A stretch of 64,000 nucleotides of DNA from Yuukianura sp. NJ FZ-2021. Lineage: Eukaryota. Position 1 is the first letter of the stretch. The number at the start of each line of letters is the position of its first letter. A program made the translations under genes and the position numbers. The DNA is taken from assembly GCA_046563655.1 (NCBI GenBank), contig CM102290.1, positions 9,920,001 to 9,984,000 of the forward strand, given 5' to 3'. Shown here piece by piece: positions 1 through 42,900 of this stretch. Below the pieces are notes generated by a model. The model was not told where the DNA came from, did not search any database, and was given only the letters and a program-made list of their open reading frames with translations.

Positions 1-1259
1 GGTGCTGACACGAGTCAGGACTAAAAGAAAGAAACATTTTCTTTGACTTTTTGAATTATGTATAAATGTGATTTTTGGTTTGATTTGAACAAGAGCAGAG
101 CTGTCGAGGTTGTTGATTGTTTGGCTAATTGGACTCTGTCTTACGTCTGGACAGAGAGTGATTGACATGCGCGTGTGCCACGCAGAGCCCATCGAAACTT
201 TAACTGTTACTACCATTGCAGTTCTAACTTTTACGGCGTTCTAGGTCAAAATTCCCTAAATTTAGTTCTAAAAATCCCAAAAATGTTAAAAGTAGCCTTC
301 GAAATCAAGTGTTTCTCAGCGGATTTTGATTTGTCGAAAGATTTTTGAGCAAAAGCGTTTTCCGGCTAGCTTATTTTTCGACTAAACTATGTTTTGGTGA
401 AAGTGAGTGTAAGAGAAAGTAATTTTTGGCAAAGTGCTTTCTCGGTTAGGTTACCTCACATAACGAAAGTGTTGGAAATGCGTTTCTCGGGAAAGGGGTG
501 CCCGACCTGGGGTGGGGGGTTCCAGGTAGGCCGGGGGAGGGTGTTTTCCAGGTCGGGACGGGGGAGGGGGTGATGATAATAATTCGAAGTGGTTTTGCGA
601 AGTCGTTTGAACTTTCCTCCTGGTCGTGTGGCTGAAATGGGATGGATGATGGGGTGATGGGAGTTGTTTTGGGCCTTAATTCGGGGCGATGCGGGGGACA
701 CAAGGTAGCGAGAGCGTGTTCCTTGGAGCACATTGGTATTCAGGGCGCGGCTGGTGGAGCGGGAAAGTTAAAAAGTCTCGTTGGCTCCTCGGCTTTTCAT
801 CCCTCCTTATCCTTCCTAATATTTCATATGCACGACGTTATTTTTGGGTTGCCGCTAGCAATACTATTTACATATTTTTCACATTGTGTCCTCCAAAAAC
901 TGCTCCCCTTTATTTTTTGGGACATCATAGTAATGCATTTTAACGTCCTTTATCATTCATTGCAGCATCTCATAACTCCCATTCCACCACCACCACCAAG
1001 TAAATATTTGGACGCAAAAAGAAAAGAGCTTCAGAGACAATGGGACACATAAAGGCTACTCCGCACTTTCGCTTCCCAGGCACACCCTTCCCCAATAAAC
1101 AATCATCTCCTCAACTTTCACTCTGCACCACCCCATCAACATCATCACTAACCCCGCATCACTCACCTTACACCCACGCAACACGCTCAACATCCACACC
1201 ATAACATAATGCAACCAAAACTTAATCATTCCCTAACCTTATCCAGCTATAACGTTATC

Positions 1260-1625
1260 TAATCCTGACATTGTGCAACTTTTTTAAATTAAAATTTTCA
1301 GTTAAGCACATTATGCAGTTCAAATACCTTTAAATCCTACGCACCCATTTCGAATTCTAACATCTTGAATTCTAATATCATTTAGTGCGAACATCGTTGG
1401 ATTGTAACACGTTTGAATTTTGACATAATTAAATGCCGATATCGTTCAATTTTAACCTGATTTAATCCTGGCATTGTTAACACCTACTCCAGCACCATTC
1501 AATCCTAAATTCATTGAATCCGGACATCCTTTAATAGTGAAAACGTTGAATCGTGACGTCATTGCATTCTAACGCAATCCAATCCTAACTTCCTTTAATT
1601 CAAACATCCTAACATTAATTAACCA
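1260..1625. repeat. Degenerate 16-bp minisatellite (consensus ~GAATTCTAACATCGTT)
   Basis: Successive units gaattctaatatcatt / tagtgcgaacatcgtt / ggattgtaacacgttt / gaattttgacataatt / aaatgccgatatcgtt / caattttaacctgatt. Confidence 0.75.
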
Positions 1626-4600
1626 TAGTTTAACCTATCCCTTCAAAGCGGCGCAGAATAAAACATCCAACTTCAAATCCACTGATGGAATTGTACGGGG
1701 TTTAAACAAAACTAAAGTTTCTCTAAACAATACGCGAAAACTTTTATCTCACATGCAAAAATTTTTCGCGCAAAAAGTTTGAAAGTGCAAGAAAGTTGGA
1801 AGACAAGACACAAGGAGGAAAACTCATGAAATTTAATTCACGTAGAACCATTCTCTGTGAAAGTACGAAGTAAAAGCAGAGAGAAAAATGGAAAAACAGA
1901 AAAGTTTGAAAGTTGGCGGAGACTCAGCAGCACTTTTTGCGTCTCCCTTTTTTTATATGTGTTCTGTTTGCTTGTATTCTTTTGAGTTGGGCGGAGTTGC
2001 ATTAGATTTTAAAACAAAAGGGGCTACTCCTGCCTGTATTTTTGTGAAATGGATGTGGACCATTTCGGAGGTTTGACTCCAGTTGTGAAATGGATGTGAC
2101 TGCTGGAAGTGAAAGTGTTCAGGATCTTTTTAGGATATTTTATTGACTGTGTCCACTGGTCCTGTAGGGTGGGACACTTCTTGCAGTAGGTGTGAAGCCG
2201 AGACCTGATTTACGACTCTCTCTCCATCTGGCTCGGCCACTGTCCATACTTCACACTCCGCCATAACTCAATGCGTCTTCCCCTTCAAATTGAAACTTTA
2301 ACCAATTGACTCAGCCTCCAAAAACAAAACGTAGAAGCAGCATCCACGCCATGGTTACCTGCTTGGTTACAATTGTTATTAAAATTTAGCTAATTACTGG
2401 CAAGAGTGGAAGGAAATCGAGAGAAGGAGAAAGTTTCACCCTCAAATGACGGGTTGTTGCTCACCTACCAACAAGCACAACAACAGCTAACGACTAGAGA
2501 AAGCCAAAAACCACCCTAACTTCAGTCGGAGAAAGCGGAATTCCACCCCCACGAAACAAACAAAACAAGGGAAAACCGACCCTCGCAAAACTTCACCTCA
2601 CTCCCACCACCCACAAACAACAACACAAAATGAGCGAAACAACTTTCACCCCTCAACTCCAGCTCATTCACTCACAAAACTTAAGAAAAACTTATGTAAA
2701 AACACAACAAAACTCAACAGAATATGTAGAAACACACAACAAAAGATGACAACCCATGTAAAAACACAACAAAATAATTGCCCAACGTTTTGAATTTTGT
2801 GGGATCATTTATGAATACGAACTTCGGTTTTTACTTTTTAGCAGGATTTTCCTTTGACGCCAAAAATTCGAAAATAATCCGAAATTGATTTGTTGACTCT
2901 GGGTTTAGTTTGACTTGTTTTTTCTAGTTTTGCGACCGATTTCGCCATGCAATCAGAGAAAAGTTAAAAGCGCTTTGTGTGGGGTTAGCGCTTGAGCTGA
3001 ATTCGGTTAGGAGCTAATGAAGTGCAGAGTCCAGTTGGTTTGGAGATAAGCGACGAGAGTAATGTTCTGTACAGTCAATACTGCTTCAAGTGTTTCCATT
3101 TGGGAAGTTGACTGATGAAAGGCGTCAAGGGGAAGTGGAGAAAGTCCCATTCCTCGTTCGAACAAAACTACTTTCTCCACTCCCCCCTGCCCCTCTGGCC
3201 GGGTGAGAGGTGGGGGCGGGGGATCTATTGAGAGCTTATGGGTCCAATTGTTCTTTTTCTAAACGTTTCTTGGCCCTTTCAGCCCCATTCGTTCCCATAA
3301 CTCAACCCAAACCCATCCGTCCTCAAACCCACTTTCACATTTTCACTGCTCATCGGACAGCGAATTATGGGAGAAAGCACCTTCTCCATGGAGTGGGCAA
3401 AAGACGGGACAAAATCATTGAGCCACTTCCTTCCTTAATGCTCCCCCACAAATCACAACAACTTCCAACACCATAATACTCAATCCTACAATGCACGAAT
3501 TTCGTTAGACGGCTGACGAAGTTCTTAAGGAACACAAAACATCTTCGAATTTAGGTGAATTTCAGAAGTATTTCAGAATAAATAGAATTCAGAAATATTT
3601 GTTACGATTACTGTATTCTGTTTTAATTTGAATCTTGGTTGAATTTGGAAGACATTGCCAGACGGCTTGTCAAATTTCAGAAACGGTGAAAATTTTGCTC
3701 GAATTTGAGAAACTACATCAGAACTCTGGTTCTATTCTAGACGCAGAGTTCTGGATAATTTGAAATTTTAGAATTATATAAGATTTCAGAAACCACAATT
3801 CCCCTTGGTTTCTGAAGTTCTTTTCAGAATTCCGGCCGAATTTCAGAAATTCTAGCTTTAGTTGAGCAGGGTTCAAGTATTGGCAAAGTACGCGTGAAGG
3901 CAAAGGTTGCTGTTTTGCAAACTGTGATATTCTAATGCAGGTCAAAAGCTGCAACCAGGAGAGGAGAAAAGCGTCTTGAGGAGGGAACCGAGCTCTGGAC
4001 AGGAGAAAGTGGGAGACGTTATCAGGCTAATTCTAGTTGAGGATAAGAGGTCGACGGAAGGGAGAAGCGATCCCCCGAGTCCTATTCAAATAAAAGTCGG
4101 AAGCCCCCATTCCTCTCATTTACTTCCCGTTAACGGCCCGGGAACTCTCAATATAATGAGAGAAGGGATCCTTGATCTGGCCCTTCCTTCCTTAAAATTC
4201 ACAACCGCACTTCCTCAACTCTCTCTTCCCAAAATCCAAAAAAGAGTTAAGAGGACCCCCCAACTAATTACATCCCTCCAGTACCCACCCACCCCTCAAA
4301 CAACAAGCCAACCCACCCCCTCACCCTCAAACAACACACCACCCTCTCCAAATACATGCCCAGCCATCCGACAAGCTAAGAAGTTATCCAGACCCCGAAA
4401 AGAATGCAATTTCCTGGATAGCCATCTCCAATCTCAGTCGAAGGAGGGGGGGACTTCAGGGGGTGGCTGCATCCCCACCACTGTGCTGCATAATCCCTGT
4501 CTCCCGTATCTCTAGCGGACATTCGAAGGGACCCTGATTTATGGCCTTGCCTCAAAGTGGGGCCACCGTTTCCCCTTTCTCCCGCCTGTCACCATTAACA

Positions 4601-7600
4601 GTCAGTCTACCGTCCGCTCCGCTTTCAAAAACTCGCAGCAAAACGCTGTCACCTTATTAACATCCCTACCTTAACGGCCCCCCGCCCCCTAAAGATTCTT
4701 CTTTATGGGTTATTGGTCCAGCCGTAATCAGGGGCTGTGTAACCAGGGGGTTCTAAATCATGGTGCAGAATGGGCCTAGAAGATACTTTGCAGGAAGCGG
4801 AAGAATTGAATTCACAAAGAATCCAAGGCGACAGATGGAATGCAGATGCTGGACTGGACCAGTTTTTAATGGCCTCTGAATAACAGTAAAGAAGAAGAGC
4901 CAAAAGAGCGGCGGAAGAAGGGACAAGAAGCGACCCAGGGGCTTTCTGGTCCAACTGAACAATTCCAAAAAGAGCCAGAAATCCCCACCAGAGTGGACCA
5001 TTAGATGGGGGCATTTGGCGACCGTGGGTGCAGACTCAGCAAAGTCTTTTAATACTAAAAAATACTATCCAATACTCCCACTTACCCCCCAAAAGAAAGA
5101 AACTGAACCCAAAGGAAGCGACAAAGCAGCCAACAATTTCTTTTCCCTTGTCCACCCTCCCCCCTCCCCCAAGCACACCCACAAATTACACCCAACACGC
5201 CAACAATATACATCAACTTTCTCCAAAGTTTCTTCCAAAGAAACATGGACCCATAAGCATTACTTCAGCACTATTTCCGGAGGGCGTCATTTTCTCAACA
5301 AATTCATTTTACCCATCTTCAACTCTCTGCAAAACTCACTGGACACAAATTCATCCAGAGTCACATCTCTCACACAGGGTAATGCAATAGTAACACAATT
5401 TTTTCCATCCAATAATTCACATACTACAAATTACATCAACAGTTATTTCTTTCAAAAAATTGCCCCACCCGCTAATTCATGCGCCCCAAGTAATTGCATC
5501 AAAAATTAAACGAGCACAAAAAATACGAACAACACAAACGTAGGCAATGTATTCATATCTGGAAGGAATGCGATGCCATTAACATGAAATATATAAACGG
5601 AAAACACTCAAAATGTAGGTTTTACTTTAATTACACTAATATTATATGCATTTTTGACTTGCGTTTTCTGATTATGTAATTTCATTGCTAATTGTATTAT
5701 AAAGTACGTGTTTGTTAATTTATGACGGTTTTCGGCTATGTAATACTTTGAATGTAATGGTAGAAATCCTTTCGCTGCGTAAATTACCACAAAACCAGTT
5801 CCCTCCTCACACAATGCTTTCTCAAGCATTTTATGTGTAAAACTTTGATGTTGTTTACAAGCAACCCTGAGTGTTCAAGTTCAAACTTAAAACAAAAGTA
5901 GAACTAGCCATTCGGAACAGTTTTGATTGCAAAAGTAGATTTTTCCCTGGAGGTCAATTCCCATCCTTGGAGAAAAAGAGAGGGAAAGCCAAAGTGAGTT
6001 TGAAAAGAAAGCGGCGATTAGGAGTCTAATTGCTTTACTTTCCCCAGGTGAGTAGAGGTCAATCAAGCTAAACCTAACTTTTCAAACTCCACTTTCTCTC
6101 CTACCCGGGTTTCTCCGTTTTTTCGGATTTTATCCTCGACTCAAAAAAAAATCGAAAAGAAGAGAGTAGTGTGAGGGGTTGTTGGATTGGGCTCATTAAT
6201 CTCGTCCGTTTGTGGTGACACTATCTGGACAAGGGCCTCTCTCCACTCTCCACTTGAACGCTTCCCCGTTACAGTCTCAGAGAACTCAACAGACAAAAGG
6301 CGGTCAACTTCAATCCTTCTACGATATAAAGGTTCCCTTTCAAAATACAAAAAAAAGCGGGAGAAAAAATATCCGATTTAAAAAAAACGAAAAAGAAAGA
6401 AGCACAAAACGACTTTTAACTCGTAAGGACAACTTTGTTTAAAAAAACGACCTTAACCAGATAAACCCCGTGAAAGAAAAACTACACTGCCTCCACTCAA
6501 CCAGATTTCCAAATATAAACACCAAGAAAAAGTTTTTTCGAAAATATTTAGTAATTTTCAAAATAAAACTAATGAACTATTGGTAGACAGAGAAAAATTA
6601 GTTGAAATTATAGGTGTCGCACCGTTTAAATTTCCTTTCGCCATTTCAATTTTTCCATTACTCCAATCATATCCTCGAACAAGCTAGCCTAATAACATGA
6701 AACTTTTGTTCAAATTTGCAGAGTCAGGGAAACTGGAGGCAGAGAAAACAGAGTTGGGCAGCCAGGAGTCAATTAGAGAGAGAGGTGGGCTCAATTGATT
6801 AGTTTCGTTTCTAATTGGATTTGTCTCTTGTAGCCTAGGCGTGTGACCCCACTGGGGTGCTGTGTGACCCCGGTGGGGTTCCGTATGCCTTTCTTGGGGT
6901 CCACTGTGTCATCGTATGTGTGGCTACCTCGTTAATTAATTGCACTCTCTCCGCCCATGATTATTATTATTATTGCTAATAACAGGGTAGGATGATAGTT
7001 TCAGTAGCGTTTCGGACAGCAAACAAAAGCGTTCACTCGGCGTTAATTGCCTCAGCAGTTGTAGCGGTGCGGCACCTAACCTTAAAACTCCTGCCACTTC
7101 TAAATCCACCGCCTCACACCTAACGAGCTCCAGCGCCTCCTTTCAAGATGTGGTCTCACGTAAGGTAAACAATCCCACACTTAATTGCATCTCTCTCCCT
7201 TTCCCATGCACACCATAGGTTAGGTTAGGTTCCAGAAGAAGGCAGTTTACTCGCCCGGAAAAATATGCAGGCTCCGCTTGGCCCAATCAACGGAGTTTTT
7301 TTTTTGGCGGGCGGGTTTGAAAAAAAAAGTAAAAAGGAAAAAGAGAAAGTAAATATAGGCAGAGACGCTGTGAGAAGAACAGTGAGTTATTGGAGTCTGT
7401 TCCTAATTTCAATGAGAATCGAAGGAAGGCGGTGGTGGAGAAAGTAGACGCGGAGCATACTAAAAATCAGGAAATCAGACGAAGAAAGGATCACACCTCA
7501 TTCTTTCCAAATTCAAAAAAAAAGTTTAAGAAAAAACTCAAAAAAAGTGACACTCTGATTTCATCCAAAAAGAAATGCACAAGATGGGCAGAGGGATTTA

Positions 7601-10600
7601 AAAAAAAAACAAAAACAAAAACCGCAACTCATAAAATGCCACCATTTAAGTTTTCAAAAAATGCACCCAACGGTAGAGTATGGTAAAAGTCAGTCAAGCT
7701 AAAAAAAAGAGTTAAAAAATCTGCATCTTTTCCGTTTTTTGTATTTTTTGGTTTCGTGGATGGAGTAACTATTCAACGAAAAAAGAAAGATATTTGCTAC
7801 TAGGTCCGTGGAGGGAGTAACTAATATTCACAAAAAACGAAGAGATAGTTGCTAGTTCGTTGAGGCGAAAACTAAACTCTTTCCCTGTCTCTTCTGCTCT
7901 TGTCTGTGTTTTAGTCTCTCCTGTAGAAATTAAATTCATTTTAAAAGGGATACCCTCCTTCTCTGCTGCTCTTTTACTTTCTCCACTTTTTTAAAAACCC
8001 ACTCGCTACTTTTCTTTTTCCAAAAAATCCCACTCTCTCCTACTATCTCTCTCCTGCCGTAAGACTAACAAACTCCACCTTTTTCAAATGATAATTTTTA
8101 TGGTTAGACTCACTGAGAATAATAAATTCGGATGCACGGAAGAAAGCGAACTTTCTCTAGAATCGTAACTTTTCTCCTGATTTCCACCCGAGGAATTAAA
8201 GACGGCAACTTTCTTCTTTTTGCTACAAAAAAAAAAACCGAAAGTTGCTTTTCCTTTTCGTGTCGCCTATTAAGTTAAAATCTCAAAAATCATAATTATT
8301 GAAACTGCTCGTTTTCAACTCCAAAACTACCTTTTCTGAATTTGTGAGTTGGAAAAGGAGTTTGATGTGTTTGCAATTTTTACAGACTTAAAATCCCATT
8401 CCAAGTCTTTCCTCTTTTTTAATTATCAAAAAGATGAAGCAGCAAGCACCCATCCAAGACACCAAAAATTTCTTGTCGACTATTCAATTTTTTTTCGCGT
8501 TAACTTTTTCTTGCCGCTTCTTCTTCTCTCGATTTTTAATGATGCCAATATTTTGAGGAGCTGGAGCTAGAAGTCCGGGACAGGTCATTAGACTTTACGC
8601 TGAGCAATAAATTGTATGGCGGCAGATGGATTCTCAATAGCCTCCCATTTTTCTTTTTTAAAAGTTTCAAATAAACACTTTCTCCGCGCCTCCAACACCT
8701 TCGTCTGCCCACTGCCCACTCCTTGAGCTCTCCTAGCCATTTATTTCAATATTTCTCACAAAATTCCTATAGATCACACCCTCCGCTCTCCCCACTTCAA
8801 TTTCATTACTTTTTCACAACTTTCAATTCTCCCACTGCAAACAGCTTCACCATTTCACTGTCTCTACAATAAAACCATATTATATTATTCCAAACACATA
8901 TTTTAGGAAAACATATTCCGACATTCTTTGGAATCACAATTCAAAGTCACACCAATCCCAAAACTAATCTAAGAAAAGCAGTCGAATTCAAAAACTAAAT
9001 GAAGAGAAAAGAAAGACAAACTCGCGAAAAGTAAAAATGACGAAACTAAAGAAGTGAAAAAATTACGAGACTAAATAAACAAAAAAAATTGGAAACCGGT
9101 CAGATTTTGTATCGAAAATCGGAGAAATGCAAAAACGAATAATTGTTTTAGAGTTGGTCTAAAACAGTTAAGCTGCATGTTTTAGTTCAAAACTGAAAAA
9201 ACGACCAAACTAAATGAATAATTATCGAAAACAAGTTTTGCTAAAAAAAATCCAGTTATGACGAAATCGGATGAAATTTGAAACTGACGCTTCAAAAAAA
9301 AGCTACAAAAAAGAAAATGTTGGAAACTGAAAAAGGAAACATGAATATTTTGTTTGAGAAATATAGGAATGGCGAAATTGGATTAAATTTGTGATGGGTC
9401 GTGGTGTTTTTGAGTGGAGAAAGTGAGTCTAATTAACGAAGAGTAGAGTGGGAGATGACTCATGTTTGTTCGTTTCGGGGAGAGGAACGGAGTGAGTGGG
9501 AGAGTGTTGGGGGGTGAGACAACAACCCCCTGCCCAAACAACAACAAAGTGAAACAAAAACAGAGGAGTTTAATCCTTGGCGGGGCAGAGAGTGGTGGCT
9601 CATGTTAGACCCACCATCCAATTCCATTCCGTTTTTGTTTATGGAAGCCAAACAAGGGAGAAGGGAGGCCATTTCAGCCCAAAAATAAACAACGACTGTT
9701 TTCTTTCAGACTCCGAACAGGATGCAATCTAAACAAAAGTCCACCAGGACTCAGCCCAATTCAAACCAAAACTCCCGCCATTTTCAAACTACGCCAAACT
9801 CACTTCGCCACGACTCCCAATTACACAAATAAAATCCAACTCCCCACCACCCTAATTATTTTCTCATTCAAATCACCACCTCCCCAAGCAGCGTGACCTT
9901 TGACCTCAAACTTTTACAAGTCAGCACACCCTTGCTTGAAAATTCGAAAGTTAGATACAAAAGATAACATTACTGAACCGAACAAATTTTATGCAAAATT
10001 ATGTTTTGAAAAATTAAAAAAAAATCTTTAGTCTTTAAGTTTCACCCAAATATGTTTACAAATTTATCTCAAATCTAAAATAAAACTTTTAAAAGAAATG
10101 TATTTTTTTTATCAAACGTTGTTCATATATAAACTGGAAAAAAAAAGAGATTTTGAGCATTCCGCAATTTATAAAAAATTGCGAAAATAAAATAAGGCAT
10201 TCTTTTTTGGACAACAATAATAAATTTTCAGATTAATTTTTTTTTGCTCTACTTGAGAAATCGATAACGAAATTCCTCATTTTGGAATTGAAACGGAACG
10301 ATATCAATTTCCCAGACTTTCTCCAGCGGAAAAAGTTTGAACTTTTTTTATTTTATTTTCGCAATTGAATTAGCGTTGTTACATTCAAACTAGTTATAAT
10401 GCAGAGTAGGATAGGGTGATTTTTTTTTACCAGAGTCTGGGAACTCTCCCACGGCATATAGTAACTCCCGTATAACTTAATTAGGCTTTACACAAGGGTA
10501 GAAGTCCACTGGCCCATCCACACTCACAGATTCCATGAAATCTTGGAGAGTTAGGGTACAAACCCTACCATTTTCTAGACTTTCTAATGCTAGGTTAGGT

Positions 10601-10952
10601 TCTCAGTTCCCTCCAAAAAAAATCAAAAACTTTTTTAGAAAAAAAAACTTTTACCCGTTTTTTTTTTAAAAATACTTTTTTTTTCGAAGTTATCCAAAGT
10701 GACCTCTGCTCTTTTCCCTTTGCTTTCACTCGGGAAAAAAGAAAAAAGAAAGGGTTTTGGCTGTCACCCTTTCCCTATGAAACGGTCGGATCGAGAAACT
10801 TCTAAATAAATTCCTATTGACAGACGGAAGAAAGGGATGAGGAAGTTGACAAATCTTGGAAGAAGTGAAGCGGAAAAGGGCTCCGTGAGAGTGGGTGGCA
10901 GAGAACTTCGGATTTCGGAATAAGGTGTTTCCCCAAATTCGGGAACGTGGGG

Positions 10953-11512
10953 CAGGCCCTTTTCGATTACACAAAAAAAGTAATCGATTACATATTATTA
11001 AATTATATTAAATTCTGTAATCAATTACTGTGTTTGATTATGATTACTCCGGTCTGTAATCGAAATCGAAAGTTTTAATTTGTAATCGTATTCCCTTAGA
11101 GTTTCGATAACTCTGAGTTCGATTACATTTTAGCTGCTCAAGTATGACCGAAAAGATCTCGGACATACTCTGTGTTCTCTTAAAACGTTACAATCCCGCT
11201 GCAAAATATATTAACTCAAGTTTCAATCTAAATAACAATTATTCTCGTAAATTCCGATATAGAATTTTTATGTTTGACATGTTTAGAATGGGTTATTGAC
11301 GAATTTGTGCTTTAAAGTTTGTGATCGTGTAATCGAAAATTTTCTAAGTTCGATTACCATTATGATTACGAGACCAAATTTTTTATTAATTGATTGCAAC
11401 CCTCGGTTACGATTAAAAATTATAAAAAAAATAGTAAACTAGTAAATTTGCAATTTGTAATCGCAATCCTTGTAATCGGGTAATCGAAACCGCTGTAATC
11501 GAAAAGGGCCTG
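10953..11512. mobile_element. Non-autonomous hAT-like MITE, 560 bp
   Basis: Perfect 19-bp TIRs CAGGCCCTTTTCGATTACA (10953-10971) / TGTAATCGAAAAGGGCCTG (11494-11512); 8-bp TSD ACGTGGGG / GCGTGGGG (7/8); many subterminal GTAATCG/CGATTAC repeats; CAG terminus plus 8-bp TSD is typical of hAT. Confidence 0.9.
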
Positions 11513-12872
11513 GCGTGGGGAAGTGGGTGAAAAATAAAGATAAAAGAGGTTCGACATCTTTTGGCTGAAGAAAGACCGGGTCTAGGGGCAGTGGAGGTTC
11601 TCATGATGGGGAAATGTGAGGAAATGATTGGGAAGTGCGAGAAACCCCGATTGGGAAATTGTGGGGAAGTGCGGGGGAATGAGCGGGAAAAGAAAGAAGT
11701 AAAGGGTTGCAAATTTTGGGAAACGAAGAGGGGAGTGGGGGGTTCGGAATAGTGTTTTCTCCCCGATTGGGAGTGTGGGGGAGTGAGTGGGAAAAGAAAG
11801 AGAAAAGAGGATTGTGACTTTGGGAATTAATTCCGTCCTCTACAAAAACCTTACAAGGTGAGAGTGGCTGAAGATCCATTTGTCTCTGAAGCCATTCCAT
11901 TAATTAGAAGGGCCTCCTCCCATGTACATCTTCGAACAGAAGTCAAAGTGAGGGAAAAGACAAAAGATGAAAAATTGGGCTTCAGTTCTAATTATAACTT
12001 TTGGTTGGAGAAAGCGAGAGGAATTACTTCTCATTAACCTATGGAAAACACAACGTAGTGGAAGGCGCCAAAAATTAAGATCTTCAAACTTTTGTCTCAC
12101 TTTCCCTTGACAGGCCAAAGTGTCACTCTCCCCTCAGCCACTTAAGGTGAAGAGTCACTCACACAAACGACGACTACATTCATCTCACTCAAATCCAACA
12201 ACTCCACTATTCTCTCCAATTATCACACGCTCCTCTTCTAAACAAAGTTTCCAGCGCTCAAGGTTTTTTTAACTTCTGAAAAAAACATTCCAAAAAATCC
12301 ATTACCACTTTGTACTAATGACTCCGAACTGCCGACATCTGAACCTATTCCATTCTTCATCGATGTTATAAGCCGACATTTGACCTCGCAAATTAATACT
12401 AAACCCCCTCGAAAACTGAAATTCCTAAGTACACATCTGACATAGCGTATAACAAACGATCCCCTAAAATGCCTGATATTTGGAACATCACGAATAAACG
12501 GTCTAAAAAATCGATGAGTAAAAATTGCCGACAGAAGAAATACTAAACCATTGAAATCTTGCAAAAATGGTATAAAATCCTGAGAACAAAAAGATACCGA
12601 CAGCTAAATCTTTCGAAATGAACAAAAACTGAAGAATTTGATTGAACAGAGAAAAATATTATAAATGTGTTGATTGAGTGAAAAATGCCGACAGATGAAA
12701 TAAAAAACTTCAAAATGCAGGACAATCAAAATTTTCCATTAAAAAACGACGACATATGAAAACCGTTGAAGTGAGTAAAATATGTCGACGGATAAAATCA
12801 AAACCTTCAAACTCGGCACCGAGTATAAAATGCCGACTTCTATATAAAAAGAGAAAGTATTCTTGTGCGTAC

Positions 12873-12986
12873 CTGGTCATTATCATCGTAGTCATAGCAA
12901 CTGTCGGCAGGTGAGTTGGCAGCCGAGGGTCGTCTGGAGAGGTTGATTGCTCCGCCGCACTCTGCATCCGAATCCATCATTCCATC
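12873..12986 (-). CDS. Isolated 114-nt symmetric (phase 0/0) coding exon, FoxP-like N-terminal peptide
   Basis: Clean AG/GT boundaries, open frame, GC-richer than flanks, contains tandem ATG ATG (MM) that may be the conserved start; missed by the ORF track in this frame. Confidence 0.75.
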
Positions 12987-27900: not shown

Positions 27901-30900
27901 CTTTCCCTCCCACTTTCTCCAGCCTCAAACTGAATAAATCCGCAAGGACTAGAAATAATTAAAAGAAAGTCAATTACAGTCCTCGCCACCACGACTTTTT
28001 TTTACTTTTTGAATTTTCCCTCCTTTCTGCTTCTCATTTGCATGATCACCGCCAAAGAACAAAAAAAAACTTTAACTAAAAACTCTTTTCCCAATTCCTT
28101 TCACTTTTTACTTTCTCCGAATGATCCCAAATCCACCGCAGTGGAATGCTCCCATGCTCCTTACTTATTCATTCTCCCAAATACTGCGAGTTGCCAATCC
28201 AGACAACTTCCACCAAATGAGAAATTAAGAATAACATCACGCCAGCCCGCTTTTTTGATTTTTTTTTTCGGAGCACCAAATTTAAATTCAATTCCAACCG
28301 TGTGCATCCATCTCCCTCTTTTCACAGTCACTGCCTCTCTTTTTCTTTGTCTCTCCTCTTCAAAATTAAAATCAACATTTCTTCAAAAAAATTCAAAAAT
28401 CAAGCACCACACAGTTTAACCGGCCCAGTTTGTTTAGACACATTTTGGAAGTCAATTTCGGTCGGAGTTTTTGAAATATAAAAAATTCGTTTTTTTCTCA
28501 CTTTTTCCCGGGTGAAAACGTATTTGTAAAATATGGGGAAAAGTCGCCTTCCAATATCCATTTCCCATTTGATTAGAGACAAAAAGAGAAAGAAGGAGAA
28601 GAGCCTTGGCAACTTATGTTTCCTGCCTATGAAATTTATTTAAGTTTTCCCTCGCAAATGCACAGGGAAGCATCTCCCAGGCGGAAATGTATATTTTGCA
28701 TTGAAGTTTCCTTGAAGATGAGGAGAGAGGAAGGGGGCAGCTGCCGCTTTCTCTTTGCCTACAATAGGAACGGGAGAGAAAGCTAAATGGGAATCTAAAT
28801 TCATTTCCATGACACAGCTTCCGGATCCCTGCCCTTCTCACTTCCCTTGTCCCATCTGCGCAAGCTTCTCATAAAAATAACAAATGACCTCCAAAGGTCA
28901 AAGGTCAATTTCTGTCACGTTAGATTGAGTTAAGGGCATCTCCCGTAAAAGTTTTTTTTTGTATTTTTGAGTTTTGAATTTAACCTGTCCAAACTTATCA
29001 CCAATGCTATCGTCATCTTTTTATAAATAGAGGTTAATGACCCTCATCAAGGTGGTTGAGCTTCATTCTGTTTAGCTAGTTCCATATATTTGGAAAATGT
29101 TTGTTTGCTCGTGTGTCAAATTTAAATGTTTCTAATGAGTATGCAGTGGGTTCCCAGACAGGTTCAATCCCTCAATAGTTCTAATCAGAATTTAGCCGTA
29201 CATGCGACTATTCTATGAACTCAAGGTTTGGTCTAAGTTAGTACCAAAAATTAGTACTTATAATTTCCCCTTGATGGAATACTTCAAGAAATTAGTGGAG
29301 AGACCAGTTATAACGGATTCGCTTAATTCGCGAATTTTTGAAAAGATTTTTGAAAAAAAATGGACAGGCAAAAAATAAGTTCTTTTCAAAAGTCTCACCC
29401 AAATGTTGTTTTCCGAAGTCGGAAATTGTTTGGTAGGGTTTGACAATTTCAAGAATTTTTTTTTTGTGCTTTCCAAGTTTTAAGGAGTGAAAATCAATTT
29501 TAATTGGTTGTGTATAAATTATAAATTTGTTATTTGGCAGAATAAATGCTCCACCACTGCTTCTTTCGCCATTTTTTTTCTAAATATAGTCCTTGTTTGT
29601 GCGTTTTTTAAATTTAAATCTGTGTAATTTTTCCACAAATGCCTTTACCAACTTCATGTTGAAAACAAATTGGAAGGGATGCCCAATTGAGTAAATAAAA
29701 ATTGCAGTTCATTGGAAACTCTTTGAAAATATTTTGCAGAAAAGGCAAAAAAAAAAAATTTTCTTTCAAAAGTCTCACCCATATTTTGTTTTCCGAAGGT
29801 GGAAAGTGTTTAGTCGGGTTTGACAATTTAAAAAAAAAAGATTTTTTGCTTTTTCCACTTTGTATGGAGTGGAAATCAATTTTAACTCGGTTTAGAATCA
29901 ATTTTTTGTTTACGCGAATGGTACCCTCTCCACTTGTTTCATCAATTTTTTGTCGAAATGCAATCCTTTTTGCGTTTTTTAAATTTAAATCTGTCTAATT
30001 TTTCCACAAATGCCTTTACCAAAGCCATGTCGAAAACAAATTAGAAAGGAGGCCCATTTGAGTGAATAAAAACGTCGGTTCCTCGGGAAATTTTTAAAAT
30101 GGTTTGCAGAAAAGGCAAACAAAATTCTTTTTTTTTCAAAAGTCTCACCCATATTTTGTTTTCCGAAGCTGGAAAGTGTTTGGTCGGGTTTGACAATTTC
30201 AAAAAAGATTTTTTTTCCTTTTTCCACATTGTATGTGAAAATAAATTTTAATTCGGTTTAGAATCAATTTTTTGTTTACATGAATGCTCCCCCCCTCCCC
30301 CTCCATTTGTTTCAACAATGAAAACTATTTTGACAATAGATTTCTGCCAAAAAAAAATAATTTGGTCAGATGGTTCTCCTGTCTGCTTGTTTTATCAAAA
30401 AATGATCTTAAAGCGTAACAGAACTGTGTAATTTCTCAAAGGCAAAAAACTTCAATAAATAGCTTAACCGTGATTAAAAGTGTACCTTAAGACCACTACT
30501 TCATGAAGGTCACGGCCCAGATGAATTGTCATTAACCTCTCAAAAAATTGTTTAAGTGAAATAGAAAATTGACCAATGTCCGACTTTTTCCGCGGGTGAC
30601 GGGCCCACGGAAAAGCAGGAACCCCGGTTCAGTTCTCGCGGGATTCGGCGGGAGAGCTTCATAAACCTGTCTTCTTCCGCAGTAAGAAAAAGAACATGAC
30701 AAAGATGACTTTCTCTGCGGTTTTCGGGCAAAGAAGATGCAGAAAAAAAAAAGAAAAAGGAGAAAACTTTTATGAGGAGAGGTTTCCTCAGTCGGGCCGT
30801 TGTTCGTATCTTCAACAATTAATTTTATGGCCCGTTCCACCACCACCACCACTGTCATCTTGCATTAAAATCACGCTGCATTCTCAAGAAAAGAGCACCA

Positions 30901-33900
30901 CAGAACATGAACGTTGGAAGGTATGGCCTGGGGCAGCCTCATTTGGCATTCCTCTTCCCCCCTGCCACAATCATCCCATTGATAAGGACCATAAAAGGAC
31001 CAAGGGGGCGGGGGCCACTTGACACACCAAGGGAACGAAGGGGGGCACTTGACACATTTCCTGAGAGAAAGCAGAAAGTTTAGAGGGTTTCTGAGCGGAA
31101 GACAAAGAACGGCAAGAGTCGAGTTGTAAAAGAAGGAACAGAGAGCGGAGAGGCTAATAAACGAAACAAACGAGCTTGTAATTGATGACGAGCGGAGAGC
31201 GGGAGTGGGTCTTGGTTGCCAAGAATTTAAACCTTCCCGCCACCACTTTTCCCTACGTTTTACAATTAAGAATTAAGGCCACAGAAGACTTTCTTTCCAA
31301 CTTTCTTCTTCCTTTGATCTCACCACCCTTATTGAAACGGAACAAAATTCCTCCATTCACATTTATCATCTCCACCTACCACAGTTGGGCACAACCACAC
31401 AATGGTTTCCTCCACTTTTAAAAGCGGAGCCAAAATACTAATCTGGAAGGTCTTTTGGATGGACCAGAGGCATTAATTCTGGAAGATTCTCCAAAGAAAT
31501 GAATTTCCTAGACACAACAGCCTTTACCACCCAATAACGACTCCGTCCCAGCCTCCACCCCCACAAACTTTCTCAAAAGAAACAATTAAACTCTTTTGTC
31601 TCAAAGCTTGAAACAACAGCAATTCCCCCTTCACCCCACCCCCCGTTTTGATTTGGCTAAAAGGTTTAGGTCCTTTGGCTATTTATGGACCTCTCCACTG
31701 CCCAGTAGTCCGATGACGAAGGGGACCATTACGACGAGCAGGAACTTTACTTTGGTCCCTCAGTGGGTGGAAATGGAGGGAGAGATGTCGGGGTGGGGAG
31801 AGGCCATCAGCCCAAAAGTTTGACTTGACACATTGGGCCACTTTGATATTGGAAAGTGAAAGTGGAGAAAGTATCCAGAGGCTGGTGAAGTGGCCTAATG
31901 CCCCTCTGTAGCTCCGGAGCTGGGCAAATCGACGAGCCCAGGTGACAGAGAGGGAATCGTTTGGTGCAGGAGAAAGTGACTCGGAGAAAGGATTAGATGC
32001 TCCACATCCAAGATGGAAATGGAGTCCAGGCACTGACACACGCCAAATTCAAATACATCCACATCCCACCATTGAGGATTTCCTCAAACTCAGCAACTTT
32101 CCGAATTCACGCATCCGAAATTTCCTATAAATACATGTGGAACTTCCTACATTTCTCCGAACTATGTGCAGGCAATTTTCTATACAGCTCCGAAATTTCC
32201 CATAGCTATAAAGAATTTCCTACAATGTATACAGATCTGAAACCCGTTAAATTTACACATCATATGAAATTTTCTATACACATCTCTTTGGATGTGTACA
32301 CATCTCAAATCTCATATACAAATCTCAAATTAGGTTTACAGTAAACGTAACTGAAATTTACTGGACACATCTAAAAGTTGTGATGCATGCACACATCACG
32401 GTTTACACACTTGAAATTTGCGACTAAGTGTTACACCATTTTTTGTCATGCACATCTAAAGTTTACTATATGTACGAAATTGCCTCCAAATTCTACAATC
32501 ATGTACATTATGTTTCATGTACGACTCAAATTCATAGTACAAATACAGAATTTGGAAGTGGACAATCAAAACGAAATAACCAGGTATGCGAAATACGATT
32601 AGACAAAACTAAACTAAACCTTATGACATTATTTTCAAAATTTGTGAAACTTTTGAGGACGTAAAATTGAGGATAGTTTTGAAGACAAGTTTGAGGACCC
32701 TGAAAAAGTGAAGTAGGGGAAGACTGACATGACGGCGTCAGTTGGAGTCGTGAGATGCGGCTTGAGAGAAAAATGAGTGTGGCTTAAGTGTGAGGCGGGA
32801 AGTATAAGTAGGAGTTAGAGATGAGTTTGAAAATGAGGGAAGATTTAAAAGAAAGAAAGGAGAAAAGAAGGAAGATTTGGAAGTCCCTTATCTCTCCATT
32901 ACAGGATGCAAAGAGCCCTACTTCCACTTGCCCAAAAAGTCCCTAATTTTACTACTCTCCCACACTCGCCTCCTTCCGGCATAATCCCCCCATTACATAC
33001 TCGTTTTACTCACAATCCACTTATGTCCTTACCACCTCTCAAATCACCCCCACTCAACAACTCCCCCCAAGGACACTCGCCAAACAGCACATCAGACACC
33101 GAAAACCAAACATACAAGTCCCTGTCTGTCCCCGGTTAAGCACTTTCTCTCAGAGTTCACCATTTTCTGAGAGGTTATTCACCTTTTCTCGGGACGTTCA
33201 CTATTTTCTAAGAAAAAGTAGAGGAAAATTCCCACTGTGGCTGGAAATTAATAAAAATTAGAAATTGGCCCATTTGGAATTTGTGCGGGTGGTGGAGCTG
33301 TTTTGTGTCACCAAATGGGAAGTGGGTCTGGTGGAGACTCTGGGCGGTGGGCTGGTGGTGCTTGGGGAAAGTAATGGATCTGTGGATGTGTTTTGAAGGA
33401 GGGCGCGTGAGGAATGGGCCGAGAGAGGGTCGTTCCTCTTGTCGTGTCAAGTGACTTTATTTATCTGAGCCATTCTCTAACCTCTCTCTAATATATATGC
33501 ACATAATCTCTAATCAAATTTAGTACAATTGTCTTATTGTGCCCATTTCTTGTGAGCTTTATGGCTTGGAAACAAAGACTCTCTCCTTCTACACTGGGTT
33601 CGGAGCTTCCCGGCGGGAAAAGTGGATTTTAAAAAAGGGCGCCGTTCAAACTTCCTCACGGCCTCTCTCTCTCCTGGGCGGGAGACAGAGGGAAGTGAAA
33701 GAACTTTGATTGAATTTCCCTCCAAATGCTCAAATGTCTTTCACCGGATTTGGACGGAAGCTCTTCTCTTCCAGAAATGGCCAACCTCTGTTCTCAATCT
33801 GCTACACATCCACCCAATAGTAGGCTCTCCATAAAACACTTATCATTTAAATAATATTATAATATATTTTTCTCAATATTATAATACATTTTTCCATATT

Positions 33901-36900
33901 TCATTATTACACTAACGACGGCCACCACCTCACCCTATCACTAACCATAAATTCACACCAGAAGATCGGAAAAGGCTTACTTTCACAAAAGAGAAAAAAA
34001 CTCTCCGAAGAGGCCCGTCTATTACGTCACGCGATTTTCAAAATCTACGCTTTTCCAGAAAATTAACATTAACGTTACTTTCATTCAAGAAGAATCTGAA
34101 TTTTCTAAAGATAATTTTTAATTTTTTTTTCATATGCTTTTCTTATGTGAACTTCGAAAGAGAGGCCAAGGTCACAGTTTTCTTTTACCGAAGCGTGAAT
34201 TAAAGAAAAAAGTCGCAACTTTGCCACATCGCAAATTCCCCCCGGTTTTCCAATTTAAAAAAAACGGCAAAATCTTTCCGGAAACAGAGGTAAGTTCGAA
34301 AAATAAAAGAAGAACGCATACGTTGCGTTATTGTTGTTTTGATGGTGAATACGGTGGGAAAAGTTGAAAAAAGTTGAGGTGGGGGCTAGGAGGTGGGGCG
34401 GTTAGGAAAAGAGATGAGGCTTAGGGGTTAAGGGTTACTGTTTTTCTTCTCTTTTTAGATGATTCAGCTCCAACTTTTACTTTTTTTTTTCTTGTTCAAA
34501 CCAGCATCCTTCCACTTTAAACAAAAAGAAAAAGCACAAAGTTTTTCCAATGGGTTTCTTAACTTTGCCTCTGTTTCTTGATCCCTGTCTTTATTTTATG
34601 GGCCAAAGCTAAGCCTCTCCTGCGCACAGTTTCCTAGCACAACCAAAAACAGAGGAGAGCCCTTGACCAAGGGCACCCCTCTTCCGGACGGCCCTGCGTT
34701 CCCATGGAGATCCTATTTCAGTCCCACCTGTGCCCCCGGGGGGAGGGGACACCCATTAACATTACCATAAATCAACCAATCCCTGCCTCTGACAACCCAT
34801 TTAGAACAAAATTTGGGGCTGTTTGAACAAAAATGAAAAGGAATTGAGAGGAAGTTGGAAGAAGGAAATTACGAACCGAAAAACCTTCTCTCAAACGACA
34901 ACTGTGACAAAATTTATTAGTTCATAAGATTTGCATGAAAAGATTTCTTCTAGAGGAGAAAAGCACCACTACCACCCAATTCCCATAGGCTCAGCTCTCT
35001 CCAAATGTGATACAAAGCCACATCTTACACAAAATTACAATATTCAAATCTCACTTTTCTAAACACATTTTTAAAACAAAAAATATGTTCCTTCAAATTT
35101 CCTAAAACAAAAAAAAATATGCTCTTTCGAATTTTTTAAAAAATAAAAAATATGCGTCTTCAAGATTTTGAAATAAAAAATATTTTCCTTCAAATATTAT
35201 AAAATCTACACTACTTCAAACATTCGATATCCAAACATGCTCCAAAAACTTGAAATGAAAATTAAAACATAACAAGTAAATAAAACATATTTCGATCAAA
35301 CCGGCTTAATATAAAAAGAAAAGTAAAACCTCAGAAAGGCACATTGAGAAATTGGAAAACCAAAAAAAAAAAATCAGAAAAACTGAAGACGAAAAATTAA
35401 GAAAACCTGTTTTTTTTTTACAAAACTAGGAGCGTTTAAATTCAGCTTGAATTATCCAAACTTTCTCTCCTAAACGTCCAGAAACAGTAGCCTCGTGACG
35501 TCTCATAACCAGTTCCAGTGGCTCCGCTATGCCGGTGGGTCAGTCGAATTTATTCAGTGGGGCGGGAAAAGAGGAAAATGAAGCTCAATCTGATTAGGTT
35601 TATCCAGTGGACTGTGAACAAGGTAGAAGCCGTTGAATTGCCACAATTCCATGCATCTTAAGATCTTCCTCTCTTGCTCCACTGAACACTTCTCTTTTCC
35701 CATTCTCTAATTCAACGGAGATTGTTAACCTTTGGAGAAAGTATTTATCCAAACCAAATAGCACTTTCTCCTCCTCCAAATGAAACTACACGCAGTAGGC
35801 CACTATCCTAACAACTCCTCATGCTCAGTTATGAAAAGGCATAACCTAACCAACCTAAACTCATTAGGTTATGGTCCAAGTGAAGCTCAACTACGACATA
35901 GACAGTTGATGTTGAGATGATATGCTGATAGTCCAAATGAATCCATTCAGCCCCATTGTTCTCTCCATTCAATTAGGGAATTAAGGCACTCTGCACATCT
36001 TTCTCCACTTTCTCCGCAGCCCCTTCCGTACACAAACTCTCATGGACTTGGACACAGTAGAACTGAAGTGTGTTGGTAATGGGCTCAGCATGTGTCATTG
36101 CACTAATAAGCACGATCCTTATCCCCAACACTCTCCAACCTAATTAATTGTGCCTCCTCTGCATCACCTGGAGAAACCATCAACCCATTGGCCACACACT
36201 TAATGAGTCACTTTGACTCACTTGACTCATTGAGTCACTTTGGACTCATTGAATCACTAACTCCCAAGGAAGGGAGGGGAGTTAGATGGATTCATTCCGA
36301 GTGCCCATTCACAGGCTTTACGACCCACTTGCCCACTGCTGTAATGAGAACCGACTTTGCGGTGAGCCTCATTTCCATCCCATTCAAACAGCCCGCAACA
36401 ACCGAATCAACAAGCGCAAACATTCTCACTCAAAACCATTTCCTTCCCTCCGCAAAACAAGATCACAAACCAACTATTCGTTTCCACATTCTAACAGCTC
36501 TATTTAATACCAACCTTGTCTACAAGCTTACAAGCTATTCCTGCCAAAACCAAGCTAACAAATCGTACCTAAATCTAACTAACATAATCGTACCAAAAAA
36601 TAGGCCGTAACAAACCTAAACTAACATCGTAGTAAGCAGATCGTACAAACAAAACTAACATAAACTACAAAAACCGAACCAACATAATTGTACCAAAATC
36701 AAACTGTTGGTAAGTAAATCGCTTTTAACATACTCCGTACCAAAGCCAACCATTGCACCAAGAAGCTAGTTCGTACCAAAATCAAACCAATATTGTACTT
36801 TAACCAAACTAACTTAATCCCAACATAAACTAAATTGCTTGACCGTGACACGGTGACAGTGATACTCGAGCCTCTTCGAAAACCTTGGACCACGAAAGCC

Positions 36901-39900: not shown

Positions 39901-41468
39901 TGCTGATGACGTGTTACCTACTGTGGGTCTATGGGTAGTACCCATTGGGTACATCACTATCTTCTCCATGACTTCTTCGCAACAACGGCGTCTGGGCCAA
40001 GGTTCCTTGACAACCGAATTGTAACAGGTTGTCCAATAAGTCGAGGTTTAGAAAAAAAATTGCTTCAAATAATTTGCCCCACCCCCCCACTTTTCCCCCA
40101 ATTTAAATTGCTTTACATGAAAATAATTACCATATAAAAAAAAGTTTTTCTTTTTTGACGAAATGAAAAACATCCGAGTTATTGGACAACCTGGTAGAAA
40201 AAACATTCATTTTTGCTTACGAACCTTGGTCTGGGCACTGCGCAAATCAAAAGCGTCTTCAATACATAGCGTTCGCGTTGACGTTAGGCTCGCTCCCGCT
40301 CTACAGATGCGTGTACGTTGACACTAACGTTATGTTCATTTTGATGTTGGACAAATGACGCTACTCGAAAAGTTAGAATTGGCGAGAAAAATAGTTTATA
40401 CAGGTATATCTTATGGAAAATTAAATCTACGCGCTACGCTCCAAATTTTACAGACTGATAACATACCCGAACGTTTTGAGACGTTATCTCGCTGACAAAA
40501 CTTGTAATTTCCAAAATTCTGAAGTGTTTACTTTTTTAAGGAACTAAAGAGTAGGAGAGGCCTTGTAAAAATAAAAGGGCGATTGTTGAGGCGGGAATAT
40601 TTGATTTTGAATGGAAGCATATTCAGGGAATGAGAAGTGACGGGAAAGAGATCTTCTTTTTCCTTCTGAATATTTATGAGATTTCGTTTTAATAAAAGCT
40701 GACATGAGAAAAACACAGAATTTCTTGTTTAGCATCCCACTTCATCCCTTCAGTTTCTCCTAATTTCTTACAACTAAAACTCCCGCTTTCTCTAAATTGC
40801 ATAACTTTCAAACCAACCCATGGGAGCACGCCATGGACCCGTGAAAGGTAACTTTTCCCGGGCTAACCTTTGGATTGGGAATTTGATTTCTTTGGGACTT
40901 TCTTCCACACAGTACTATATGGGCATTTTCTCCTGCTATTGGATTGTGACATTACAGTTTCCAACGTCCATCTCTCTCTCCTGTCTCGTATCTCTCTTTC
41001 CCATCGCCCATTTCCCGTCTTTTGTGGTGGTGATTTGGGGTTATTTCGAGGTTTTTCTTTTGCAAAGATCAGCAAACAATGTGGACAATAATTTAAGACT
41101 TGCTTACGCCCTCTCCTTTCTTCTGCTGCCTCTTCAAGCCCCTGATTTTTATTTCTTTATTTCCCATCCCCCCTCCCTGCCTCCGAATCCAAAACTTCTT
41201 CCAAACTGAGTTTACGAGCCACAATTAAAACGGAAATGAAAGTTAGGAGAGAGAAAGAGAAAAATAATATCCGCCTTACCCCAGTTTTTAATTCCTCGGA
41301 TCGATGAACAACCGTCGTCGTCGACTCTCCATTCCCGTCACCACGGCACTCACCTAGTTCATGAGGATCGTCTGCTTGGGCGTAGAAATACGAAATCTTG
41401 AAATCTGCACTAGTGCCCTCCAAGCGGATTACTCCTTGCACTTTGTGATTGCAGACTACCGAGTCCAT
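12873..41468 (-). CDS. FoxP: 5' coding exons of a large gene, probably a forkhead box P (FoxP) transcription factor; partial, continues off the left edge
   Basis: Exon 41468-41280 (63 codons, MDSVVCNHK...EELKTG, donor GGG|GTAAGG, phase 0) can splice in frame to exon 12986-12873 (acceptor TGCAG|, 38 codons DGMMDSDAECGGAINLSRRPSAANSPADSCYDYDDNDQ, donor CAG|GTACGC). The 'MD...GAINLS.R.SAA.(T/S)P...Y..DNDQ' pattern matches my recollection of arthropod FoxP N-termini. No zinc finger, leucine zipper or forkhead domain lies in the window, so identity is inferred. Confidence 0.6.
21975..22315. repeat. Degenerate minisatellite rich in TGTGTAAAC / AAAAACTGT
   Basis: Repeated gtgtaaactgaaaaaa..ctgt..aaacttacac units visible by eye; exact period not determined. 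Confidence 0.65.
23450..23780. repeat. Degenerate ~31-bp minisatellite (GGGTCAACTTCA core)
   Basis: gggctaacttca / gggtcaacttca / aggctaacttca / gggtcaacttca recurring at roughly 31-bp spacing, decaying rightwards. Confidence 0.7.
29340..30320. repeat. Tandem repeat, ~370-380 bp unit, ~2.7 copies
   Basis: Anchor AGTCTCACCC..TTTTCCGAAG..GGGTTTGACAATTT at 29391, 29771 and 30141; anchor TTTCCACAAATGCCTTTACCA at 29631 and 30001. Confidence 0.9.
36204..36256. promoter_or_regulatory. Homotypic AP-1 (TGA[C/G]TCA) site cluster
   Basis: Perfect sites at 36204, 36214, 36223 and 36231; near-sites GGACTCA 36242 and TGAATCA 36250. Confidence 0.55.
36510..36835. repeat. Degenerate minisatellite (AACTAACAT..CGTACC)
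   Basis: Recurring aactaacat and cgtacc(a) motifs at roughly 25-bp spacing. Confidence 0.6.
40025..40193. mobile_element. Small degenerate MITE-like inverted-repeat element (possibly Tc1/mariner-derived)
   Basis: CAGGTTGTCCAATAAGTCG (40025-40043) vs CGAGTTATTGGACAACCTG (40175-40193), 18/19 inverted match; outer inverted pair CCAAGGTTC / GAACCTTGG; no clean TA TSD. Confidence 0.55.
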
Positions 41469-42614: not shown

Positions 42615-42900
42615 CTTATATCAGCAATGGAATCCACAGAACGTTCACTTGTCGTAGAGATTACTGCCGACGTCGTCTCCTCCCCTTTGTGTGTGTCCAG
42701 CATCTCTTCAGCACTTATCTTGTAGAGATTCGTCGAATCGGATGTTAATTGATGACTTGATTAATTAGTTGATTGATGATTGTAGTAAAGTAATCGTTGT
42801 CACTGGTTATGTGCGTTGACTCTTTGTTCACTTTGAGGAGGACGAAGATGGCGGACTCCCTCCTGCTGCGGCGTCGTGGAAAAGAGGGATGAAAAAGAGG
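42615..42900 (-). other. Probable first (5' leader) exon of the FoxP-like gene, carrying an upstream ATG at 42703
   Basis: Strong donor AAG|GTAAGT at 42615/42614; GC-rich promoter-like sequence at 42840-43015; ATG 42703 opens 29 codons to the donor. The 5' end is approximate. Confidence 0.5.

Follow-up and report, generated by a model that had tools for sequence, protein, structure and literature searches.

The FoxP locus and its predicted long introns

The 64,000-nucleotide stretch of the Yuukianura sp. NJ FZ-2021 genome analysed here (the window, C8:9,920,001–9,984,000; the genome comprises 98.7 Mb, with 8 large contigs) contains long non-coding DNA of a gene whose FOXP coiled-coil (FOXP-CC) and Forkhead exons are found on the minus strand to the left of the window (L002). 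The host gene is therefore FoxP. Between positions 400 and 41,200 (the FoxP stretch), this DNA carries islands of raised GC content, each of which has a sharp central flip from G-rich to C-rich sequence. The pattern is real and non-periodic; most likely, an element-centred skew of a known kind is seen here in a strong form.

Splice sites and an in-frame join between 41,280 and 12,986 point to two FoxP introns of 13.4 and 28.3 kb, in a genome whose predicted introns have a median length of 95 nucleotides (n = 493). The 114-nucleotide coding exon between them (12,873–12,986, minus strand), which would encode a segment of the N-terminal region, is flanked by an AG acceptor and a GT donor, is in phase 0 on both sides and, judging by its position and frame, probably belongs to FoxP. 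Positions 1–12,872 (minus strand) would form part of the 13.4-kb intron, whose next exon is predicted about 0.5 kb left of the window, and positions 12,987–41,279 (minus strand) the first long intron or upstream region of 28.3 kb, over which the minus strand has more G than C overall (by about 0.09–0.11). The predicted upstream exon (41,280–41,468, minus strand) has a GTAAG donor and is in frame with the exon ending at 12,986; its coding score is weak and it has no Pfam match. Further exons in the same direction (42,059–42,703, minus strand), also with a weak coding score, may represent a 5′ untranslated region or a separate gene.

The Forkhead domain is split over two exons (L002:2485–2763 and 4255–4599, minus strand), the first of which we take to resemble the alternative exon for the forkhead C-terminus in insect FoxP. 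A sense-strand excess of G over C of 0.09–0.16 is seen in long stretches upstream of or within FoxP and a dopamine-receptor-like gene (window positions 1–41,200; L006, L007), in contrast to the interiors of short introns (−0.02). No structured RNA family of Rfam was found within 400–41,200.

GC-raised islands with a central G-to-C flip

A skew scan of positions 400–41,200, in which 300-bp windows were used, steps above 3 standard deviations (SD) were retained and 30 dinucleotide shuffles served as a control, identified 35 G-to-C steps, compared to a mean of 2.1 and a maximum of 5 in the shuffles. The SD of the steps was 2.78 times that of the shuffles. The centres of the 35 islands, which are not assigned to a strand, are located at 793, 2198, 3244, 4070, 5031, 7005, 7870, 8632, 9610, 12025, 13209, 13864, 14847, 15486, 16314, 17591, 18795, 19678, 21008, 22697, 23396, 24030, 25113, 26175, 26972, 27896, 31279, 32031, 32884, 33642, 34438, 37198, 38219, 39598 and 40711, and 33 reverse (C-to-G) steps fall between them. 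An earlier note on this DNA had listed 20 switch points by eye, and 20/20 fall within 110 bp of a computed step, with 19% of the region being that close.

The shape of the islands was derived from a held-out profile, for which centres were located on half of the bases and the skew was measured on the other half. The GC skew at G-to-C steps amounts to 0.23 within 50 bp, peaks at 0.37–0.39 at 100–200 bp and is near zero by 350–400 bp from the centre. The held-out AT skew does not exceed 0.08 throughout, with a slight change of sign at distances below 100 bp from the centre; the earlier description of the modules as running from G/T-rich to C/A-rich thus stands for G and C and overstates the contribution of T and A. 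In the strand-symmetrised 5′ arm, the frequency of G is 0.28–0.31 and that of C is 0.13–0.14, with about 0.19 each just outside. These arms are superimposed on a regional rise in GC content over about ±300 bp, from 0.36–0.38 at 400–600 bp to 0.44–0.45 at the centres.

The earlier remark that every module reads G-then-C on both strands is true of necessity, as any G-to-C step has this property. What is not trivial is the placement: it is the G-to-C step, and not the C-to-G step, that coincides with the GC island, and it is also the sharper one. GC content is 0.44 at the G-to-C steps versus 0.38 at the 33 reverse steps, which lie in AT-rich DNA and display a held-out skew of only −0.07 within 50 bp, followed by a slow build-up. 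GC content and skew cross-correlate in an antisymmetric manner, with values of +0.20 at −250 bp and −0.16 at +250 bp, and among the strongest steps after GC normalisation the ratio of G-to-C to reverse steps is 9:1 within 400–41,200 and 11:2 elsewhere. In a type example (9,310–9,960), a G-rich arm, the flip at 9,610 and a C-rich arm are enclosed by AT-rich spacers in which deletions are polymorphic (9,086–9,170 and 9,923–10,112), and the strongest island (32,580–33,170) has a step of 0.49 at 32,884.

This difference between the two kinds of step bears on a reversed assignment of roles, according to which the AT-rich troughs would be the active sites (starts of bidirectional transcription or replication) and the flips would be the meeting points of neighbouring domains. 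G exceeds C on the 3′ side of troughs chosen by AT content in 13/17 cases within the FoxP stretch and in 113/171 elsewhere, and long introns have more G than C on the sense strand here, both of which fit such an assignment. The skew, however, is near zero within 100 bp of a trough and peaks 200–400 bp away, it is the G-to-C step that is sharp, the reverse one being gradual, and the troughs are where indels and degenerate repeats sit. We regard this reading as quite unlikely.

A repeat or transposon family is not supported as the origin of the modules, between which no shared homology was found, in line with the earlier note; long repeats are confined to the spacers. Degenerate tandem or dispersed short repeats occur only in AT-rich spacers (12,520–13,580, 21,960–22,110, 23,485–23,600, 29,342–30,292 and 35,070–35,204), of which that at 29,342–30,292 (plus strand) contains three degenerate copies of a 370–380-bp unit and no island. 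A multi-copy repeat rich in GTAATCG words occupies 10,950–11,510 and displays a depth spike and loose ends in 3/3 runs. TTAGG-type telomere-like words (GTTAGGTT) are strongly enriched in non-coding DNA, with 16 occurrences in the window versus 1.0 expected and 78 versus 4.9 expected in the Hox pieces L032–L051.

Spacing of the islands

The 31 spacings between centres range from 634 to 3,383 bp with a median of 1,021 bp. Their coefficient of variation (CV), 0.52, is close to the value of 0.57 (95% range 0.42–0.78) obtained for random packing with a 500-bp minimum spacing. The skew autocorrelation has a single weak bump (+0.10 at 850–950 bp) and no second harmonic, and the power of the periodogram is spread broadly over 800–1,300 bp with a top line at 868 bp. 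For these three reasons, the kilobase periodicity proposed in the earlier note was rejected. The scale of about 1 kb arises because islands of similar width are packed closely, not because of a ruler.

Arm pairing and RNA folding

The polarity of the arms had also led to the proposal that the islands are serial RNA fold-back domains that compact the long intron. We folded 22 strong islands together with 12 full shuffles and 12 arm-preserving shuffles of each, and exchanged arms between islands to obtain chimeras. The mean folding z score was −0.67 relative to full shuffles and −1.15 relative to arm-preserving shuffles, and 3/22 islands folded better than their shuffles. With z below −4 on the sense strand, the three (3,244; 17,591; 22,697) are well folded, which speaks for fold-back, and one of them maps to 22,520–22,870 (minus strand, z −4.1). 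Duplexes of an island's own arms were better than those with foreign arms by only 1.4 kcal/mol on average, and their ranks were spread from 1 to 20 of 21; reverse-complement 9-mers were shared at 0.59 between own and 0.58 between foreign arms, and the number of cross-centre inverted repeats of at least 8 bp (4) was within that of the chimeras (2–13). Arm pairing is thus not module-specific, and the fold-back idea fails because the arms pair no better with their own than with a foreign partner. Furthermore, no recursive-splicing site (ratchet-type AG/GT) was found on the minus strand with the pattern used, and the same polarity is present in Hox-cluster pieces that lack an overall strand skew. 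We assign next to no probability to fold-back domains shortening the intron; the folding of the three islands is local and not a design of the array. An inverted pair of GGAGAAAGT sites with a perfect 12-bp core (3,134–3,181, no strand assigned) forms a local hairpin, with a folding z score of −2.2 for 3,080–3,300. One of the three islands folds by way of such a pair, formed by a recurrent motif.

The polarity elsewhere in the window and the genome

For comparison with the rest of the genome, we sampled 97 pieces of 10 kb, which cover about 1% of it and are enriched for developmental loci. What sets the FoxP stretch apart is the strength of the pattern and not its kind. Its four pieces rank 1–4 of 97 with a step SD of 0.152–0.166, compared to a median of 0.069 and a maximum of 0.109 for 27 pieces at fixed chromosome positions and to 0.096–0.125 for one further region of the same genome. 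The same polarity is present in 20 Hox-cluster pieces, where the antisymmetry is 0.041 versus 0.129 in the FoxP stretch, and near other (NK-type) homeobox loci. Beyond 400–41,200, strong G-to-C steps outnumber reverse steps by 20 to 4, and the antisymmetry is positive in 65 of the 93 non-window pieces, coding-rich ones included. When anchors were chosen by GC content alone, C>G and A>T were found on the 3′ side, with C>G in 20/27 cases within the FoxP stretch and in 69/115 elsewhere; at 100–300 bp, the C–G difference was +0.055 to +0.065 and the A–T difference +0.02 to +0.04 in the FoxP stretch, and +0.025 and +0.03, respectively, elsewhere.

Predicted gene starts carry no such skew: at 112 start codons predicted ab initio, G–C stays within ±0.023 in all 50-bp bins to 1 kb upstream. 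The short introns of this genome are also free of it. Both observations argue against a general footprint of transcription starts.

As the earlier note had observed, the pattern fades in the gene-dense right third of the window, where the density of steps drops from 8.6 to 4.4 per 10 kb (43,401–64,000) and the island polarity is absent. This part contains a CXXC zinc-binding gene, an RRM gene that we take to be of the Musashi type, ORC5 and a SET1-type gene. In Drosophila, mir-1000 is linked to musashi; here, a mir-1000 precursor (Rfam RF03299, 62.4 bits) lies at 50,656–50,727 (plus strand), upstream of the Musashi-type gene and on the opposite strand. The clearest island of the right third (49,200–49,900), with a strong G-to-C step at 49,523, is non-coding and is also situated upstream of this gene.

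The Hox-type cluster spans about 370 kb at C5:7.89–8.26 Mb; its pieces L038–L040 are rich in long open frames (0.34–0.50), and other genes are therefore interspersed in it. We take the Hox sequences to be of arthropod type. A search with ORC5 was empty at 1e-20, and one with a glucosidase gave best hits at 77% and 73%, with named crustaceans and insects reaching 57% or less. Contig C22 (L072–L073), for which a mitochondrial identity was considered and rejected, carries a 510-bp satellite array and, after it, a Polinton-like element with frames that by eye are polymerase-, ATPase- and integrase-like.

Signs of regulatory function

The description of the islands as enhancer-like elements, made in the earlier note, has gained indirect support from sequence variants, a motif, the polarity at homeobox loci and the match to Drosophila elements. 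The motif, GGAGAAAG, occurs 38 times versus 3.5 expected (about 10-fold), and 22 of the occurrences are located 5′ of a centre at a distance of up to 200 bp. Its count tracks the step strength over 63 pieces (rho 0.72), and it is found 82 times in the Hox pieces versus 12.5 expected. We presume a likeness to Blimp-1/IRF sites, which a literature search did not establish. The centres are also enriched for GAGAG (2.7-fold) and G[AT]GAAAG (2.5-fold), and not for the Polycomb-element words GCCAT (1.18-fold) and GTGT (1.10-fold).

Variants were called from three runs on 8,001–28,000, and the best-supported 40 of 459 substitutions, spanning 8,997–21,648, and 12 of 116 indels were retained. Of the 40 substitutions, 6 are found at 200 bp or less from a centre, compared to an expectation of 35% (p 0.004); counted as clusters, the fraction is 5/28 (p 0.04). 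None of the 13 indels or deletions in that range (11 of the 12 indels and 2 joints) lies that close.

This scarcity also bears on meiotic break hotspots, at which C would be lost from resected single strands on the 5′ side, while GC content would rise through GC-biased conversion. The polarity and the GC rise fit such hotspots in principle, and strand-asymmetric C>N mutations, C>G included, are known in human (PMC7615360). The human pattern, though, is symmetric in the central ±100 bp and peaks 700–800 bp out (PMC7615360), a scale that may not transfer, whereas the skew is already present within 50 bp here and gone by 400 bp, and variation at the centres is lower, not higher. Hotspots are thus a very improbable cause of the islands.

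The only related species found (L106) covers the downstream FoxP introns only. In these introns, about 2.6–4.8 kb left of the window, it shares with L002 five conserved non-coding blocks that are 72–95% identical and have a GC content of 0.37–0.51. CpG shows a dip at the centres (observed/expected 0.68); CpG methylation was rejected as its cause, as an exon-by-exon search of the genome gave no match to PF00145, the C5 DNA methyltransferase family, which does not prove absence.

Nature of the skew

We favour the following explanation, to which we give about an even chance. The FoxP regulatory desert would be packed with constrained cis-regulatory islands about 700–800 bp wide, set apart by AT-rich spacers that tolerate indels and repeats, and each island would have a protein-bound, open core. 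The skew would be a by-product, the footprint of a G/C substitution bias that is diffuse and strand-asymmetric and changes direction at each core, such that the strand running into the core gains G and loses C, overlaid on a symmetric rise in GC content. The extreme position of FoxP would be due to the density and probable old age of its islands.

In the 5′ arm, GA/TC, AG/CT, GT/AC and TG/CA ratios are all near 2 and AA/TT is 0.97. GG/CC is 2.95 there, below the value of about 3.9 predicted from independent single bases, which counts against selection for G runs. Plain deamination of C to T is improbable as the cause, since it should add T and lower GC content, and neither is seen.

The main rival holds that the polarity itself is weakly selected, with oriented G-rich arms shaping nucleosome positions, the direction of remodelers or the binding of GA-type factors to either side of the core. 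In support of selection, GAGAG and G[AT]GAAAG are enriched at the centres, GA repeats have the strongest oriented profile of 70 permutations, ordinary gene starts are skew-free, GA and CA repeats are needed for the activity of fly enhancers (PMC4079970), and GC content around fly elements evolves in a compensatory manner (PMC3671938). Nevertheless, masking of motifs and G runs leaves about half or more of the skew in place, the GG/CC ratio is low, and GGAGAAAG is oriented no differently (21:4) from its permutations (141:26), its orientation thus following composition. Masking GGAGAAAG leaves the skew intact (+0.123/−0.191 becomes +0.119/−0.190). The motif was rejected as the cause of the skew: beyond the FoxP stretch, its oriented profile (0.026) is not above those of the permutations, 67/70 of which have the same sign. 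The G/C substitution bias is favoured, and weak selection on oriented chromatin sequence is possible at a clearly lower probability; the data cannot separate the two.

A further rival, which we consider unlikely, interprets the islands as replication origins or fork-pausing sites, with the skew being a leading/lagging footprint or a signal from OGRE (G-rich repeats at origins) or from G-quadruplexes. In mouse origins, one class of which is enhancer-rich, the start site has been described as having G-rich words on its 5′ side and C-rich words on its 3′ side at a distance of about 250 bp (PMC4665008), and the FoxP stretch contains 18 G3 quadruplex patterns versus 2 in the right third, with a G4Hunter score of 1.5 reached in 22/32 islands. 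The quadruplex counts are, however, circular with G richness, both arms are present in just 12% of the oligonucleotide-positive mouse origins (PMC4665008), and lambda-exonuclease bias may inflate the signature (PMC4371235). Moreover, promoters, the usual sites of origins, are skew-free here. A spacing of 1 kb is presumably dense for origins.

Several observations weigh against constrained regulatory islands with a substitution footprint. TAAT sites are not enriched at the centres (0.63). In 20-bp bins there is no dip corresponding to a 20–30-bp AT-rich core (GC 0.42–0.47, with centres placed to tens of bases). The polarity at the five blocks shared with the relative is weak (5/5 in the relative and 3/5 here, with 58% expected by chance). 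The scarcity of variants derives from the 40/459 substitutions and 12/116 indels picked by support, and an indel at 27,871, excluded as being outside the substitution range, lies at a distance of 25 bp from a centre. Germ-line activity would be required for a mutational cause, and yet the 112 predicted starts are skew-free, and the fly paper holds that the GC rise around its elements is non-neutral (PMC3671938).

It is also possible, though less likely than not, that this arthropod lineage possesses a strong C/G-specific, strand-asymmetric process of mutation or repair that extends outward from distal regulatory elements while sparing ordinary promoters, which would allow single enhancers to be recognised and centred from raw sequence. 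Were it true, the skew that flanks fly conserved elements, as yet unexplained, would become measurable element by element. Should the islands prove to be enhancers, regulatory elements of a non-model arthropod could be mapped by a simple skew scan, with no need for chromatin data. As the skew is visible in single elements, population data could tell mutation bias and selection apart. The array itself would be an ordinary regulatory desert of a developmental gene.

Comparison with known systems

A literature search, from which most subscription journals were outside, found no island-level skew of such size in an intron of a springtail or another arthropod. Transcription-associated skews are related in that they consist of G/C asymmetry with little A/T asymmetry. 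C-biased transcription starts occur in fungi and invertebrates (PMC3315797), and divergent starts of this type would give the polarity of the islands; a marked GC-skew pattern is also reported for divergent promoters of C. elegans (10.1101/224642). The FoxP amplitude is, however, far larger than, for example, the skew of Drosophila introns (about 1%, PMC5786239), and predicted gene starts and short introns are skew-free here. The OGRE of metazoan origins (Cayrou 2015, PMC4665008) resemble the FoxP islands, as compared by sequence alone, in being G-rich 5′ and C-rich 3′ with an offset of a few hundred bases, but single origins are mostly one-sided and tied to G runs. Fly enhancers share with the islands an enrichment of GA-rich and CA-rich words (PMC4079970); these words are polarised about the island centre here, whereas the accessible text of that study describes no orientation.

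The closest parallel is to the conserved elements and DNase sites of Drosophila. According to Kenigsberg and Tanay (2013; PMC3671938), GC content is raised over ±300 bp at fly conserved elements, A and C exceed G and T downstream, and divergence is low at the centre and peaks about 400–500 bp out; in the accessible text, the skew is given one sentence and no cause. The FoxP islands have in common with these elements the GC rise, the 3′ excess of C and A, their non-coding nature and their proximity to regulated genes. A short AT core is not resolved in the FoxP islands. Judged from the text of the fly paper and not from its amplitude figure, the FoxP skew is the stronger of the two: unlike that of the Drosophila elements, it is visible in single islands (GC skew of about 0.38) and sets almost purely G against C.

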